Notes under the pieces: model-generated
Seen by the model: the letters and a program-made list of their open reading frames with translations, nothing else
Told to the model about the DNA's origin: nothing
Databases searched by the model: none
Shown here: positions 2,388 through 15,970 of the stretch, one piece after another
How positions within the stretch are numbered: position 1 is the first letter of the stretch
Layout of the letters: every line of letters begins with the position of its first letter
Program-made: the position numbers and the translations under genes
IMG/VR virus record: IMGVR_UViG_3300027842_000121
Reading direction: 5' to 3' (one strand)
Source of the DNA: an uncultured virus (IMG/VR IMGVR_UViG_3300027842_000121)
Lineage: Duplodnaviria; Heunggongvirae; Uroviricota; Caudoviricetes
Length of the DNA: 64,000 bases

Positions 2388-2708
2388 CCGTTTCGGCTTG
2401 AACGCCCTTCCGCGTCTCGGAAATTTCTCGCGAGGCTGTTCCCTGGTCTCATGCGGCCTGAGCAGCCTCCAACGATACCGTTCCGGCGTGAGGATGATCG
2501 CGCATAGCCGTTCCTCCTCCAGCTCTCGAACCAAAGTAATCGCAGCATTATCGTCGTGCACGTAGCGCGCCGGATTTGCCAGACTGTCTATGTGAAATCC
2601 GGCAAGCTCATCACACTCCGAAACCACGACTACAACCCACTCCCTCGACCGCATCGAAAGCGCCTTTCCCAAAATGTCGGAGTTGTCGGAGTTGTCGGTG
2701 TTTTCCAC
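2361..2708 (-). CDS. hypothetical protein
   Basis: 115-aa ORF; its N-terminal TDNSDNSD is just the translated inverted-repeat arm, so the true start may be later. Confidence 0.35.
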   Translation of the reverse strand: MENTDNSDNSDILGKALSMRSREWVVVVVSECDELAGFHIDSLANPARYVHDDNAAITLVRELEEERLCAIILTPERYRWRLLRPHETREQPREKFPRRGRAFKPKRKKAHPDDG

Positions 2709-2801
2709 TAGCTGCTGAGTATGTAATTACAATAACCTTAACATCAATCAATTTGCTGACGGCTAGGACAACTCCGACATCTCCGACAACTCCGACATTT
2801 T
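2671..2801. repeat. 35-bp inverted repeat built of 9-bp iterons around an AT-rich core; putative replication origin
   Basis: 2671-2705 versus reverse complement of 2767-2801 match at 32/35; unit TCCGACAAC; AT-rich 61-bp spacer. Confidence 0.75.
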
Positions 2802-4399
2802 CACTGCCACCTAACGCCGTATTTTACGCGTCTGCGGTCAGCCACATCGCCAACCATCTTAAGTCCTGCTGCAATCGTATTGACGTGTTTCTTAAGTAAC
2901 AGTCCAAGTCTGCGAGCATCGATCTGACCCATGCTCCCCCTTTTTGCGCAAAACGAAAGGAGAAGATCGTACATTTTGGGATGTTTTAACTTATCATTAT
3001 AGTCCTTCTCGCTCACCATGTCAACGATATCGGCTGCGGTCCAGACCTCTGATGTTCCTAATGCCTCTGCCCAAGCTGTGAATAGTTCATATCTATCTTG
3101 TCTCACCGGGTCAACGGCTCTCGCCGTTGCCATGCTGTCGACCGGATCGGCATATCCGAGCCACACAAGCGGCTGACGGACGAAATGACACCACCCTTCG
3201 TAGCTGCCGAGGGGCGCCAAATCGCCTTTTGGGGCTCCCGCGAGCACGTATGCGCGTGCGATCGTCAGGCATGCGGCCACATACAAACCGCGATTTTCCC
3301 TTACCTCTTTTAACGGATTGCGCGAGAAAACCCGGTTCTCGGGATTCTCGGTGTTTGCGTCCATCGAACAAATCAGCGTGCGCCTTACAAGATCATCCAC
3401 AACACTCGCATTATTTCCATTGGCGAATACTGTGACTGCATTTGATATGATCGGCAGGTCTGACGTGCCTAATATTCGAGGCTTCAATAATGGTCTTTCG
3501 GTTATTTGGCACAGGAAGTCTCCTGACAGCGCCTCGCTGCAGTTGTCGAGGCAGACGATGGGTGATCCTGCGATGATCGAGCCGGCGAGCCGTTTTTCGG
3601 TTTCTGCCGGATCGTCGGGTGCGACGGCAATTGCCGGCGCTCGCTCACCTGTTGCGATGACCGATGCCACGTCTGCCAGGTAGGATTTGCCGGTCCCGGC
3701 AAGCGGCGCCGTCACCAGGTGCATCGGCGCCACTTCCATCGCGGTGCGCAGCACGGCCGTCATGATCATCGAGAGGCCGACCGAGCGGGAGGCTTCGTCG
3801 GAGAACGGGAATTCGCTCAAGAGGTCGAGCAGCAACGCCCCTGCCGCATCCGCCTCGTCAAAGCTCGGGTCATCGTGGAAACGGGTCGGCAGCTGCACGC
3901 CGGAGCGCAGCACCATGCCGGTTTCCTCGTCATAGCCAGGCTCGGTCAAAAGGGTTCCCGACGCGCGTATCGTCGGACAGGCGGCGATGCCGCGCAGGGT
4001 CGGGAATTCCCAGGCTCCGACCATGTCGAGGATCATGGCGACAACGCTCTGCGGCGGGGCGCAGGGTGCTGTCGCATGCCCGCCCTTGCCGCTGCCGATT
4101 TTCTGCCAGTGCGCGACCTCCCCGAGCAGGCGTTCGAGGATCGGGCGGGTAACCTCGACGATGCCCGGTGTCGTGATCGCAGCACCGTTCATTGCGCGCG
4201 AGCGGATGCCGGCGACGCGCACGAGCGTATGGCTGCGCTGGTAGATTTCCGCTTTGGCCTCGAGGAGTGCGGCCATGGCGGCGTCGACCGCGGCGTTGCG
4301 CGGGCCCGGCTGCACCGTGATCACGGGCTTGCCGTCCTTGGCCGCCCATCCCGGCAGCTCGACGATCTCGCCCTTCACCGGTAGACCCTCGCAATCCAA
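2801..4399 (-). CDS. primase-associated P-loop NTPase/helicase-like replication protein
   Basis: Walker A APLAGTGKS, Walker B-like IVCLDN, ANGNN and DDLVRR motifs; in operon with Prim-Pol. Confidence 0.75.
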   Translation of the reverse strand: MDCEGLPVKGEIVELPGWAAKDGKPVITVQPGPRNAAVDAAMAALLEAKAEIYQRSHTLVRVAGIRSRAMNGAAITTPGIVEVTRPILERLLGEVAHWQKIGSGKGGHATAPCAPPQSVVAMILDMVGAWEFPTLRGIAACPTIRASGTLLTEPGYDEETGMVLRSGVQLPTRFHDDPSFDEADAAGALLLDLLSEFPFSDEASRSVGLSMIMTAVLRTAMEVAPMHLVTAPLAGTGKSYLADVASVIATGERAPAIAVAPDDPAETEKRLAGSIIAGSPIVCLDNCSEALSGDFLCQITERPLLKPRILGTSDLPIISNAVTVFANGNNASVVDDLVRRTLICSMDANTENPENRVFSRNPLKEVRENRGLYVAACLTIARAYVLAGAPKGDLAPLGSYEGWCHFVRQPLVWLGYADPVDSMATARAVDPVRQDRYELFTAWAEALGTSEVWTAADIVDMVSEKDYNDKLKHPKMYDLLLSFCAKRGSMGQIDARRLGLLLKKHVNTIAAGLKMVGDVADRRRVKYGVRWQ

Positions 4400-8630: not shown

Positions 8631-9263
8631 ATGACGACGGTAACGATTGAGCAGATGGTGGAGCGGTGGAGCGACCCGAATGCGCGTCCGCCATTCAAGG
8701 GCGCGCTGATCGACGACGACGGCTGCTGCTGCGCGCAGGGCGACGTGCTCCGGCAGTGTGGCTGGAGCGACGAGCGGCTGCGCTCTGCCGAGCAGCGCGA
8801 GGCGGACAGATCCGTGGCGCAAGCCCTGGGCATCAGCCTAACGCAAGCGATTCTGCTGGGTGTTATCAATGATCAGCAAGATGGCTGTCCGCAGGATGTG
8901 TTGGCACATCCCGAGCGCGTGCTGGGCAACCAGGCGCCGCGTATTCTGGCTCTCTGGCGTCGCTTTGACGCGATGACGCCGCAGCAGTGGGATGCTGCTA
9001 TGGCTGCCGCCGGGGCTGCCGCCGCGGCCGCCGCCGCGGCTGCCGCTTGGGCTGCCGCTCGGGCTGCCGCCGGGGCTGCCGCTCGGGCTGCCGCCGGGAC
9101 TGCCGCCGCGGCTGCCGCTCGGACTGCCGCTCGGGCTGCCGCCGGGGCTGCCGCTTGGGCTGCCGCTAATGCCACAAACGAGGTCCAGGGCGCCGAACGC
9201 CTGCAATCATTCTTCTTCCTCCCGTTATTCGGGATCAATCACCCCAGCGAGTTCGACGGCTAA
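8631..9263 (+). CDS. Ala-rich repeat phage protein
   Basis: GGAGG at 8621, ATG at 8631; AAAW/AAAR/AAAG repeats. Confidence 0.7.
   Translation: MTTVTIEQMVERWSDPNARPPFKGALIDDDGCCCAQGDVLRQCGWSDERLRSAEQREADRSVAQALGISLTQAILLGVINDQQDGCPQDVLAHPERVLGNQAPRILALWRRFDAMTPQQWDAAMAAAGAAAAAAAAAAAWAAARAAAGAAARAAAGTAAAAAARTAARAAAGAAAWAAANATNEVQGAERLQSFFFLPLFGINHPSEFDG
9003..9167 (+). repeat. 12-nt coding tandem repeat GCTGCCGCY-NNN
   Basis: Units such as GCTGCCGCTCGG, GCTGCCGCCGGG, GCTGCCGCTTGG. Confidence 0.85.
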
Positions 9264-10348: not shown

Positions 10349-11041
10349 ATGTCTGATACAGGTGTAATCGAAAGGGCAGTAAGGACCAAGGGCGGCCGCA
10401 AACCGCCCCCGGAAATCGCGGCCGAACCGCCCCAGCGCGAGGTTGTAATTGCCCCGCCGAAGTTCGAGCGGGCGGTGATCACGATCCAAGGCGATGCGCC
10501 CTATTGCCAGCACAAGTTTTCTGCCAAAGCGCGGCAGATGATCATCGAGACCCAGATGGCGGGCTCGGTCAGCCGCAAGGGCAAGAAGCGTGAGCCGCGG
10601 GATTTCGACGCGGATTACCGTGGCGCGATGCACGTCTCGCGCGAGGGCTGGGTGGGTATTCCCTGCGCGTCGTTTCGCAATGCGATGATCAGCGCCTGCC
10701 GGCTCGCAGGCTTTGTGATGACGCGGGCAAAGCTGAGCCTGTTTGTCGAGCCTGACGGGTTTGACGCAGATGACGGCACGCCGCTGACCAGGATCATCGG
10801 GGAACCTGTGCAGAACATCAGCTATGTGCGAAATGAAACCGGCGTTGTCGATATTCGCTGCCGGCCATTGTGGGAACAGTGGTCTGCCGAGGTCTCGTTG
10901 AAATGGGACGCGGACCAATTCAGCGCAGCCGATGTTGTCAATCTGTTGTCGCGAGCCGGCGTGCAGGTGGGGATTGGCGAGGGGCGCCCCGACTCGCCGC
11001 GAGCCAACGGCGTTGGCTGGGGGACATTTGTGCTGTTGTAA
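10349..11041 (+). CDS. stand-alone RAMP/Cas7-like protein
   Basis: First strand ITIQGDAP, IPCASFRNAM (compare RAMP IPgSslKGal), terminal Gly-rich loop GVQVGIGEGRP...GWGTF; array starts 3 nt after the stop. Confidence 0.7.
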   Translation: MSDTGVIERAVRTKGGRKPPPEIAAEPPQREVVIAPPKFERAVITIQGDAPYCQHKFSAKARQMIIETQMAGSVSRKGKKREPRDFDADYRGAMHVSREGWVGIPCASFRNAMISACRLAGFVMTRAKLSLFVEPDGFDADDGTPLTRIIGEPVQNISYVRNETGVVDIRCRPLWEQWSAEVSLKWDADQFSAADVVNLLSRAGVQVGIGEGRPDSPRANGVGWGTFVLL

Positions 11042-11043
11042 AG

Positions 11044-11431
11044 GGCTGGATGGACGAGACGGGGCAGGGCCAGAAGGGGCATGACAGGCTTGACGGGGCT
11101 AGATGCGGCCGGACGTGTCTCGACACGATGAGGCAAGGCAGGCCCGGCCTGGCCTGACTAGACGAGACAGGGTAAGGCATGGCAGGCAGGGCCTGTCGTG
11201 GCGAGATGTGACGGGGCCATGCAGGGCAGGCGCGTCGGGCCTTGGCTTGGCGCGACGAGACGGGGATAGGCAGGCCCGACGAGGCGTGGCGGGGCGTCAT
11301 GAGGCTGGACAGGACGGGGCAGGCATGACCAGACGAGGCCTGGCCGGACATGACAGGACACGACGAGACGTGCCCTGGCAGGACCGACATGACAAGGACG
11401 CGACGAGACGCGGTTCGACGGGACCAGACCA
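11044..11431 (+). repeat. pentamer array 1: G(G/A)C-NN units punctuated by GGCA; probable guide-RNA precursor
   Basis: 4-nt punctuation at 11083, 11137, 11181, 11225, 11269, 11318, 11377 gives spacings 54, 44, 44, 44, 49, 59, all 4+5n. Confidence 0.9.
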
Positions 11432-11449
11432 GAAATCAGGAGGAAGGGA

Positions 11450-11899
11450 ATGACGATCGCAAGCGAGTTGCTGGATCTTGAGGATGAGGACGGATTGATT
11501 GATCCGACCACTGTAGTCGATTGGGCGCGAGATAATCCCGCAAGTGCCTTGCACGGCGCAATTGAATGGGATGACGCCATAGCGGCGCACGCGCATAGGT
11601 TGTGGCAAGTGAGGAGGCTGGTTGCGATCCATATCGTGACCGATGACGGTCAGCGGCAGCGCATCTCGCTCCTGCGCGACCGCAAGAGCGGCGGCGGCTA
11701 TCGCGACGTATCCTCGGTGATGCGCAATGACGAGCTGCGCGCCGAGGCGTTGGCGGAAGCGCTTGCCGAATTGGAGCGCTGGCAGGCTCGCTATCAGCAT
11801 CTGCGCGAGTTGGCCGATGTGTTCGAGAGCACGGCTCGGGTGCGCGCTCACGTGCCGCGCCGTGCTCGCGCGCGCGAGTCTGTACAGCCGGCGGCGTAA
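11450..11899 (+). CDS. accessory protein of unknown function between the two arrays
   Basis: AGGAGG at 11438-11443; 149 aa with VVDWARD..SALH..EWDD. Confidence 0.8.
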   Translation: MTIASELLDLEDEDGLIDPTTVVDWARDNPASALHGAIEWDDAIAAHAHRLWQVRRLVAIHIVTDDGQRQRISLLRDRKSGGGYRDVSSVMRNDELRAEALAEALAELERWQARYQHLRELADVFESTARVRAHVPRRARARESVQPAA

Positions 11900-11902
11900 A
11901 AT

Positions 11903-12009
11903 GACAGGCACGATGTGCCCGGACGAGTCTTGGCGAGGCCGGGCGCGGCGAGGCAGGTGGGACATGGCATGCCCAGATCAGACACGACCAGACACGGCAG
12001 GCCCGGATT
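11903..12009 (+). repeat. pentamer array 2, same grammar
   Basis: Punctuation at 11903 (GACA), 11952 and 11996 (GGCA); spacings 49 and 44. Confidence 0.85.
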
Positions 12010-12157
12010 TCCAGGGGATAGGGGCGCTGTGCGGCCGAGGAAGGTGGCAACCGCCATCCGCCCTTCCTCGGCAGATCGCGTGCGGTGCACGGCGGCAGGC
12101 TCGCGGCGTCCCCAAACGCGGGCTTGCCGCCACCCTATAAATAATGAGGAGATTGAC

Positions 12158-14262: not shown

Positions 14263-15242
14263 AGACGGCTGCGGCACTTGCACTGCTGGCAACGACGGCC
14301 CTGACGGCCGCCGCTCACGCGCAGGGTGCCGTGCACTTCGACGGCAACAGTTATCTGTTCAAAAACGGCGGATTGAACGGCCCGCCCACCTCTTACGGAG
14401 GCTCGTTCTCGGCGTTCCTCGACACCCCGTCCGAGCAATCGTTTACGATCATCAATATGGCACCCGGAAGCACGACAAACGCGCCGGGAGTGCAGATCTC
14501 ATTCCAGCAGCTCTATGGCACGCCGGGGCTGCACCTCGATCTGGTGTTGAGCTCTGCCGGTGGAACGGGCCTCGTGCAGCGGGAGGAGATGGTCTCGGAG
14601 GAGGTGATCCCGTTCGCCGGCCTCTACCCAGACTATCCGGTCCACATCTCGCTGGCGTGGAATACCGCCGTGGCTCCGCCGCAGGCGGAGTGGTCGCTGA
14701 ACGGCGTGCAGGGACATTGGGACACCCAATTCACGCGGTATATGTTGTCCAAGCTGACCATCACGCCGACGCCATTTGCGATAAATTACGACGATGCCTC
14801 GACGGGCTCGCCGGCTCGGTGGTTTGTCGGGGCAGGACCGGCTCAGACGATGGCTCGCCCGCTGATCTACATCGGCCCGCTGGGCGGCCCTGCGGCATTC
14901 CTCGGTGCTACGGCCTACAAATACGCCGGCGACATGGCGGAGCTGTTCCTGCACGTCGGCGACGGCGACCTTGCTGATTTGACCAATTCCGAGCGGCTTG
15001 GTATCGGCGAGGAGAATTTCGCGATGCGTGACGTGACCGGGATCGCTCTGCCGATCCCGATGGGGCCAGGGTGCGCCCAGATATTTGGCGCACACGGCAA
15101 GCTGCCGGTCATTTGCATGCGTGGCGACGCCGCACACTTTCCGCTCAACTCCGCCCTCAGCACGCCGTTTCTCGTGGAAGGCACCCTTACCACAGCACCT
15201 CCATCGTCCGACCCGTTCAACCTGTGGCGGCTGATCCCATGA
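14259..15242 (+). CDS. Sec-signal exported LamG/ConA-like protein, probable paralog of 12849-13850
   Basis: Signal ending AHA; AVHFDG, HISLAWN, YAGDMAELFL, terminal SDPF. Confidence 0.65.
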   Translation: MKTAAALALLATTALTAAAHAQGAVHFDGNSYLFKNGGLNGPPTSYGGSFSAFLDTPSEQSFTIINMAPGSTTNAPGVQISFQQLYGTPGLHLDLVLSSAGGTGLVQREEMVSEEVIPFAGLYPDYPVHISLAWNTAVAPPQAEWSLNGVQGHWDTQFTRYMLSKLTITPTPFAINYDDASTGSPARWFVGAGPAQTMARPLIYIGPLGGPAAFLGATAYKYAGDMAELFLHVGDGDLADLTNSERLGIGEENFAMRDVTGIALPIPMGPGCAQIFGAHGKLPVICMRGDAAHFPLNSALSTPFLVEGTLTTAPPSSDPFNLWRLIP

Positions 15243-15970
15243 ACATAACACTTCGCCCCGAAGGGGGCATCGTCATCGAGCTGGTAAGCAAGCGCGAGAT
15301 GGCGGACATCTATTCCGCACTCGACGCCGCCCGCTCTACCGATGCCAACAGTCAGTCCGCGCGTGAGCTGCGCTGGGCCTTGATCGACGTGATGGCGAAT
15401 ATAACTTCGCAGCAGACTGCCCCTAGTCTCGATTGGGTTAACCCGCCGGACTACGCAAAGCGCCTGGTCATGAAGAACTATGATTCTCGTACCTACAGCA
15501 TTAACGATTTCATCGAATGGGACCGGCAAAAACGACTTGAACTCAATCCGATTTTTCAGCGTCGCTCTATTTGGAGCGACAAGGCTAAAAGCTATCTGAT
15601 CGATACTATTCTGCGTGGAAAACCAATTCCTAAAATCTTCATCAGGCAGAAAATTAATGTGAGCACGAGGGTGTCAATTCGTGAGGTCGTGGACGGTCAG
15701 CAACGACTAAGAACCATATTGTCTTTCATCAAAGACGGGTTTGTTGTTAGCAAATTGCACAACCGAGAATTCGGCGGTTGCCATTATAGTGAGTTGCCGG
15801 ATGAGGTCCAGGTCCAGATACTAGCCTACGAGCTATCAGTTGACCTTCTTATAAATCTGCCGGACGCTGAAATATTGGACATTTTCGGAAGACTTAATTC
15901 TTATGCCATAGTCCTAAACGAAGAGGAAACGACGCACAATCGCCCCCACGAAAATATTGTTGTTGGTTAA
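15239..15970 (+). CDS. DUF262 (GmrSD N-terminal) domain, C-terminally truncated; possible internal start at 15470
   Basis: PIFQRRSIW, LIDTILRGKPIP, VVDGQQRL, IFGRLN..LNEEE, then an abrupt end. Confidence 0.8.
   Translation: MNITLRPEGGIVIELVSKREMADIYSALDAARSTDANSQSARELRWALIDVMANITSQQTAPSLDWVNPPDYAKRLVMKNYDSRTYSINDFIEWDRQKRLELNPIFQRRSIWSDKAKSYLIDTILRGKPIPKIFIRQKINVSTRVSIREVVDGQQRLRTILSFIKDGFVVSKLHNREFGGCHYSELPDEVQVQILAYELSVDLLINLPDAEILDIFGRLNSYAIVLNEEETTHNRPHENIVVG

Follow-up and report, generated by a model that had tools for sequence, protein, structure and literature searches.

What kind of element is a long run of five-base units, in which a nearly constant triplet is followed each time by two free bases, when it lies on a phage genome, flanked by a Cas7-like gene (10349-11041) on one side and a small accessory gene (11450-11899) on the other? 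The window, i.e., the whole 64-kb stretch of DNA analysed here, is a podovirus-like phage genome from a soil metagenome (the listed DNA run is possibly the source sample), and its genes include those for terminase, portal, major head, tail tubular, and internal virion proteins, endolysin, and primase/polymerase. The run in question, array 1, belongs to a rightward early operon with the order HTH regulators, 230-aa gene, array 1, 149-aa gene, array 2, and RusA.

Re-parsing of the coordinates placed the 4-nt units of array 1 at 11083 (GACA) and at 11137, 11181, 11225, 11269, 11318, and 11377 (all GGCA). Their spacings of 54, 44, 44, 44, 49, and 59 nt give 10, 8, 8, 8, 9, and 11 pentamers, exactly the six blocks with 4-nt closers that an earlier note had read from the letters of this DNA. 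On the plus strand, these candidate vrRNA blocks, each of which is closed by a GGCA junction, occupy 11087-11140, 11141-11184, 11185-11228, 11229-11272, 11273-11321, and 11322-11380, respectively. All block lengths are 4+5n nt, so that each junction lacks one base of a full pentamer. Segmentation further showed that the array extends past the six counted blocks. Its start (11044-11086, plus strand) holds a partial first block at 11053-11086, with six pentamers from 11053 and the first junction, GACA, at 11083; its irregular last block (11381-11436, plus strand) contains one 6-nt unit at 11391, lacks the closing GGCA, and reaches into the ribosome-binding site of the next gene.

The triplet counts of the earlier note over these 54 pentamers were reproduced exactly (GGC 23, GAC 19, GAT 3, GTC 3, and GCC 2, with GGT, GGA, TGC, and CAT once each), including a G at the first position in 52 and a pyrimidine at the third in 53. 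From these counts a G-N-Y rule had been proposed, which holds at the level of the protein family, where relatives carry G or, in one case, T at position 2; within the window itself, however, the triplet is better written G-R-C, since position 2 is a purine in 49 of 54. All 16 dinucleotides are present among the NN pairs, with an entropy of 3.77 of 4 bits. Both checks that had been suggested for the rhythm, autocorrelation and position-specific entropy, bear it out: lag-5 identity is 0.53, whereas 1000 shuffles gave 0.30 +/- 0.023 and at most 0.37, and the median across the window is 0.26; and the entropy along the pentamer is 0.27, 1.44, and 0.58 bits for the triplet vs 1.88 and 1.95 bits for NN. 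In-phase G-R-C reaches 11 of 12 units in array 1, while it does not exceed 5 in the remaining plus strand (two arrays excluded) and the entire minus strand. The spectral power at period 5 is 4.9 in array 1 and 0.2-1.6 in the flanking genes; at period 3 it is 0.7, against 4.2-5.2 in the flanking genes, and this want of codon periodicity is consistent with the non-coding RNA function that had been suggested for the region.

The further claim that no block copies another stands only in part. The NN pairs are indeed diverse, but Tandem Repeats Finder detected a 35-nt period with 2.6 copies and a 76% match at 11320-11407, and the 8-mer GACGAGAC occurs five times in array 1 (five sites, 11053-11410), which suggests that new blocks come partly from local duplication. 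As a separate observation, a purine follows 21 of 24 GAC units, as compared to 15 of 29 GGC units (p 0.008).

The pentamer signal in the window is confined to two places, array 1 and a stretch at about 11900-12000. The latter, array 2 (11903-11999, plus strand), was segmented into blocks of nine and eight pentamers by junctions at 11903 (GACA), 11952, and 11996 (both GGCA); its spectral power is 4.1 at period 5 vs 0.27 at period 3, and it decays beyond 12000. Rfam release 15 (copy current on 30 Sep 2026) gave zero family matches to any part of either array, and a promoter/terminator search gave none that was convincing. The interval from array 2 to the RusA gene holds two hairpins, one at 12034-12072 with an 11-bp perfect stem and a 17-nt loop, and the other at 12091-12131, whose 15-nt arms show 87% complementarity. 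A role as terminator, as processing site, or as an element resembling a tail is conceivable for them.

The gene upstream of array 1 (10349-11041, plus strand; phrog_4652) encodes a 230-aa protein for which Pfam returned zero matches. Using phmmer, it matched PDB 36pp_D, named 'SUSP1 Vipr protein', with an E value of 0.0025, and a 75-sequence family profile reached SUSP1 Vipr at E 1e-6; the similarity lies in the C-terminal 47 residues alone, and the N-terminal alignment is not significant. This profile match to the Type II VIPR systems (Escherichia phage SUSP1, Pseudomonas fulva prophage) spans the thumb and the G-loop, in which the thumb Arg and the Arg-Pro are conserved: R172 of the window protein is aligned to R138 of SUSP1, and G210-E211-G212-R213-P214 to G176-D177-W178-R179-P180. 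According to the published description of SUSP1, W178 stacks on G2, whereas this position is an invariant Gly (G212) in the family of the window protein. The AlphaFold2 model has a mean pLDDT of 93.4, and its best Foldseek matches are Csm3/Cas7-type RAMP chains (E 3e-5, probability 1.0, TM 0.4-0.5). By similarity and predicted fold, the gene is thus assigned as a putative vipr, encoding a Cas7-like RAMP-fold member of the Vipr family (profile E 1e-6, Foldseek E 3e-5) and, presumably, the vrRNA-binding filament subunit. At E <= 0.001, the family counts 2357 cluster representatives. The window ORFs scanned against Pfam or PHROGs included no other cas gene, vipr being the sole RAMP seen among them.

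The gene downstream of array 1 (11450-11899, plus strand; phrog_15946) is a vap-like accessory gene, whose 149-aa product carries an N-terminal domain with weak evidence of a winged-helix-like fold. It has 63 relatives, mostly unnamed or annotated as 'hypothetical protein', and its homolog adjoins vipr in 13 of 28 related loci searched by tblastn. The AlphaFold2 model has a pLDDT of 91.5. Neither a Pfam family, nor a PDB sequence match, nor a Foldseek match at E <= 0.001 was found for it; in VIA-align, the top matches are all winged-helix domains over residues 1-95, with Z scores of 4.3-5.7, below the level that proves a shared fold. The vap genes of VIPR are described as DNA-binding in some types, with which this weak likeness is compatible while being too weak for proof. 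Placed after vipr, the gene would, as a candidate vap, complete a two-gene layout. A search for further loci through the 149-aa protein yielded one weak locus, which is array-free.

VIPR, a CRISPR-related RNA-guided DNA silencer, was first described in 2026 (bioRxiv 10.64898/2026.04.26.720920). According to the text of that preprint, a system consists of the Vipr RAMP, a vap gene, and vrRNAs of 9-16 GGY/NN repeats, which follow a 1-nt skip rule in reading double-stranded DNA and act as silencers of rival phages and satellites (10.64898/2026.04.26.720920). Vipr is portrayed as a minimal RAMP whose RRM core is accompanied by a glycine-rich loop and a thumb, and the systems are said to occur mainly in phages and proviruses. 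As described, the triplet is a protein-bound scaffold and NN are the guide bases (10.64898/2026.04.26.720920, 10.64898/2026.04.26.720927). The structural work on SUSP1 (10.64898/2026.04.26.720927; PDB 36pp) places a single protomer on every repeat, where G1, G2, and Y3 are contacted. The constant triplet with free NN that the earlier note had pointed out fits this description. An initial guess of a TRAP-like RNA platform or a replication origin was dropped, as the neighbouring gene matches SUSP1 Vipr.

Among the architectures outlined in the preprint, the staggered arrays come closest to the window. According to the legend of fig. S18, staggered vrRNAs overlap by 1 nt, which, compared by description, equals the 4+5n grammar of the window. 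A Vipr RAMP gene and one accessory gene on a phage, same-strand pentamer arrays with a constant triplet and free NN, and guides with no spacer or tail between them are likewise features of both as far as that account goes, the blocks of the window and of related loci abutting without tail or spacer at 4+5n nt each; the difference is the triplet, G-R-C in the window vs the published GGY. Type II VIPR is also comparable in its vipr-vap order (vipr and a vap-like gene in the window), its arrays on both sides of the genes, and its reported 9-16 repeats per guide. However, SUSP1 vrRNAs are described as being about 100 nt long, each with a structured 3' tail of about 40 nt, whereas the window blocks abut and are tail-free, and no such conserved tail of about 40 nt was found between blocks in the window or the related loci. 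Class 1 CRISPR Cas7 backbones (Csm3/Cmr4 on crRNA) have the RAMP fold in common with the window protein, Csm3 chains being its top Foldseek matches; as in VIPR by the published account, one protomer sits on each fixed step of RNA and the thumb flips bases at regular intervals, but the step is 5 nt for VIPR vs 6 for Cas7 backbones, with three bases sequestered per step vs one. A CRISPR array is absent, for Tandem Repeats Finder and the repeat parse found no repeat-spacer pattern of at least 20 nt, only 5-nt units. Taken with the gene order and the protein match, arrays 1 and 2 are, with high confidence, the vrRNA arrays, i.e., the guide-RNA arrays, of a VIPR system on a phage; the rhythm of five bases is genuine and of a known VIPR kind, with an unusual G/A mix in the constant triplet.

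For comparison, we gathered 2 vipr loci from genomes, 26 from IMG/VR viral contigs, and 62 from metagenome contigs, which came to 72 distinct ones after deduplication, and arrays were sought with strand-specific patterns, since the reverse complement of GGC also satisfies G-N-Y. An in-phase G-[AGT]-Y array was found on the vipr strand in 50 of these 72 and on the opposite strand in none; the 22 array-free loci are mostly short or cut contigs. Their arrays are situated 5' of vipr (13), immediately behind it (12), or behind the following gene (49), and they have in common the grammar of pentamer blocks closed by a 4-mer. Over 103 junctions of relatives, the 4-mer is G (57%) or C (35%) followed by G (96%), C (95%), and A (93%), and the three bases 3' of it are G (99%), G (94%), and C (91%), while NN carries 0.02-0.17 bit per position in 453 interior pentamers. 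Of the 244 units that follow an NGCA junction in the full set of loci, 212 are GGC and 11 are GGT, and the commonest lengths of 109 blocks are 10 (28 blocks), 9 (23), and 8 (18) units. GGCA-GGC, which had been proposed to mark processing or loading sites, is accordingly the most conserved feature over the 103 junctions, and by its likeness to the published staggered arrays such a role may well fit.

Carriage by phages is seen in the virion genes of the window, in the 26 IMG/VR viral contigs, and in 31 cultured-phage records with a Vipr homolog (25 of Mycobacterium, 5 of Gordonia, and 1 cyanophage). Gordonia phage UmaThurman (NC_031249.1; L092:3086-3400) and Mycobacterium phage Donkeykong (NC_051648.1; L093:2000-2340) both possess a Vipr family member and a staggered GGY-NN array with GGCA junctions; the array is annotated as protein-coding gp40 in the former and lies inside the annotated gp48 (hypothetical protein) in the latter. 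Cyanophage Cy-LDV1 (BK059895.1; L094:2516-4121) has vipr (g34), an array, a vap-like gene (g33), and a second array, i.e., the same order as the window, with these features annotated as hypothetical or unannotated. The vipr gene of this cyanophage is also the one weak match found at the DNA level among phage records. The main text of the VIPR preprint (10.64898/2026.04.26.720920) makes no mention of Mycobacterium, Gordonia, or cyanophage hosts.

Close relatives further revealed turnover of the blocks, in a comparison of the kind that the earlier note had proposed. Two loci with identical Vipr segments (L024 and L025), whose flanks align at 89% and 83%, have no block in common: none of the 12 blocks of L024 has a counterpart among the 8 of L025, the best per-block identity being 0.57-0.76, of which 0.6 is the baseline supplied by the constant triplet alone. 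In L025 and L026, by comparison, 8 of 8 blocks are identical, and in L018 and L019 (97% Vipr identity) 3 of 10 blocks are common at an identity of at least 0.92. Because guides turn over between near-identical loci, and NN is nearly free of information in the interior pentamers, the NN positions are not as constrained as the triplet across homologs, a constraint that the earlier note had named as fatal to its reading. One block was found to behave differently: block 3 of L019 and block 4 of L024 are 0.97 identical while the other blocks differ, and it is also present in L015 and L025. It has degenerate units and a small internal inverted repeat, and it may be a conserved guide or a structured element within the arrays.

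A search for self-targets in the 64-kb window with skips of 0-2 nt gave best matches equal to those of order-shuffled guides, and with a 3-nt skip it recovered the array itself alone. For cross-targets, the 109 guides were compared with 232 kb of related loci, where a skip of 1 performed the same as skips of 0 and 2.

By analogy with SUSP1 as described in the preprints, the arrays would be co-transcribed with the vipr-vap operon, and one Vipr protomer would sit on each pentamer, with two adjacent protomers gripping the constant triplet (G, G/A, C) and flipping it out. This would leave the two free bases of each unit aligned to read double-stranded DNA, two on and one skipped, and the target-bound filament would silence a gene of the competitor. 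We infer that the 4-nt unit, [G/C]GCA with GGY after it, displaces the register by a single base and would thereby end one filament and start the next, because a unit that is one base short breaks the protomer register and so would set the guide ends; the two arrays would thus give about ten separate guides of 8-11 units. In an alternative wording, the last base of one guide would be the first G of the next, which gives the 1-nt overlap of the staggered arrays as published. The junction with its head unit may serve as a nucleation or end-defining signal, while the interior units would need only G-N-Y. For staggered arrays in general, processing rests on the figure legend, because the sRNA-seq reported in the preprint confirmed only the ribozyme-interspersed and single-vrRNA architectures (10.64898/2026.04.26.720920).

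The alternative that survives best, though we consider it improbable, is that the window carries a decaying or weakened VIPR array, in which the GAC units are lesions poorly bound by Vipr and the system is on its way out. According to the preprint text, GGY>GAY was among the scaffold substitutions tested in SUSP1, and perturbation of GGY abolished silencing (10.64898/2026.04.26.720920), so the 35% share of GAC (19/54) could mean poor binding rather than relaxed specificity. The irregularity of array 1 in its last block and of array 2 at its end, together with the search that gave no target in the 64-kb window or the 232 kb of related loci, point the same way. However, G-to-A decay should strike positions 1 and 2 of the triplet equally, and over both window arrays A occurs in 0 of 71 units at position 1 vs 30 of 71 at position 2 (Fisher p 4e-11), which argues that the A at position 2 is not decay. 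The pyrimidine at position 3 is retained in all but one of the 54 pentamers, the 4+5n register is perfect over six blocks, and the vipr and vap frames are intact with high-confidence models. In addition, 21 non-canonical period-5 clusters, including GAC/NN, have been reported beside Vipr-like folds (10.64898/2026.10.21.760802), and a fixed GAC/NN in such a setting, as described there, looks like a working variant.

Far less probable is a protein-titrating or attenuator RNA, on which a ring or filament protein would bind spaced triplets and regulate the downstream gene with no DNA targeting. TRAP, which binds (G/U)AG triplets, provides the model, and the layout of array 1 resembles it in having triplets with 2-nt spacers, in blocks of 8-11, directly 5' of a ribosome-binding site. 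The neighbouring protein, however, is a Vipr-related RAMP and not a TRAP-like ring, a pure binding platform needs no hypervariable spacers with block turnover, and the arrays of relatives also lie upstream of vipr or after vap, not bound to one regulated gene. Scarcely credible is a reading without any RNA-guide role, either as a satellite made by slippage or as a low-complexity peptide that is translated. A 116-codon open frame (11103-11453) does cover most of array 1, the GenBank records of UmaThurman and Donkeykong list equivalent arrays as hypothetical proteins, and the 35-nt internal duplication is present. However, open frames are expected where only 41 T occur in 406 nt, the period-3 power is far below that of real genes, blocks of 44, 49, 54, and 59 nt shift the reading frame, and slippage would also have copied the NN bases, which are close to maximal in entropy.

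The VIPR assignment leaves the choice of base at triplet position 2 as the point in which the window departs from its relatives. In the interior units of the window this base is A in 48% and G in 40%, while the 46 other loci that offer 20 or more interior units have G in 48-100% and A in at most 29%. A second outlier is a metagenome contig (L070:3691-4345, vipr homolog at 2501-3115), whose array of about 116 units has interior triplets of the form G-T-Y, with T in 88% and G in 7% at position 2. Both outliers keep the GGCA junction with a GGY head unit (6/6 in the window and 11/11 in L070), and all 8 units that come first after a junction in the two window arrays are GGY. Previous work reported the alternative repeats NNNGG, YNNNG, and NNNNG, which keep G2 and relax G1 or Y3 (text of 10.64898/2026.04.26.720920); that text does not mention a G-N-Y triplet whose position 2 is free within a single family. 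The non-canonical clusters (GAC/NN, CAC/NN, WGT/NN, TGH/NN; 10.64898/2026.10.21.760802) resemble the window in having non-GGY triplets beside Vipr-like folds, but as described each has one dominant motif, whereas the window mixes GGC and GAC within single guides under a GGY head, and its protein family includes sister lineages with G or T. What seems to be new is therefore a triplet position 2 that depends on lineage (G/A here, T in L070, and G elsewhere) while the junction and the first GGY stay fixed.

Among 61 distinct Vipr proteins, the substitutions S219A and V147T are unique to the window, and A116V and C117M to L070; each pair comes from a single lineage, so they provide a lead and not a test. 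A possible, though rather doubtful, reading is that one Vipr family works in two modes, in which the invariant [G/C]GCA|GGY nucleates or delimits filaments, the interior G-N-Y carries a lineage 'dialect' at position 2, and private Vipr substitutions bar its use by rivals. If this were true, dialect and substitutions together would make the guides unusable by the Vipr of a rival, and vice versa, and the dialect would offer an escape from guide hijacking by solo vrRNAs. Such hijacking of Vipr by satellites has been described for SUSP1 (10.64898/2026.10.15.759431). A bolder variant holds that the G/A choice of the window carries information, e.g., on the skipped target base.

VIPR is a months-old class of RNA-guided DNA silencers and a proposed ancestor of CRISPR backbones, and the window adds a clean staggered array in a soil podovirus-like phage, an architecture outside the set that the preprint reports as confirmed by sRNA-seq. 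Comparison of the loci gives the staggered architecture a concrete junction, [G/C]GCA|GGY, and shows that G2, treated as fixed in the SUSP1 work as described, is G/A in the window and T in another relative. Cultured phages that infect Mycobacterium smegmatis, Gordonia terrae, and a cyanobacterium have the same Vipr family and grammar, which makes RNA ends and scaffold rules directly testable. VIPR itself and staggered arrays (10.64898/2026.04.26.720920), as well as GAC/NN repeats (10.64898/2026.10.21.760802), are already in the published descriptions, and the new content, the twist at triplet position 2, is modest.

Finally, two other features of the window were noted. Tandem Repeats Finder identified a GC-rich tandem repeat at 9002-9167 (12 nt x 13.8 copies or 36 nt x 4.6), which is near the divergent early region and inside overlapping open frames of both strands. 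A few kb 3' of the VIPR locus, a phage gene at 15071-15970 encodes a protein with a GmrSD_N (DUF262-type) nuclease N-terminal domain (E 7e-18), which may be a second inter-phage weapon.
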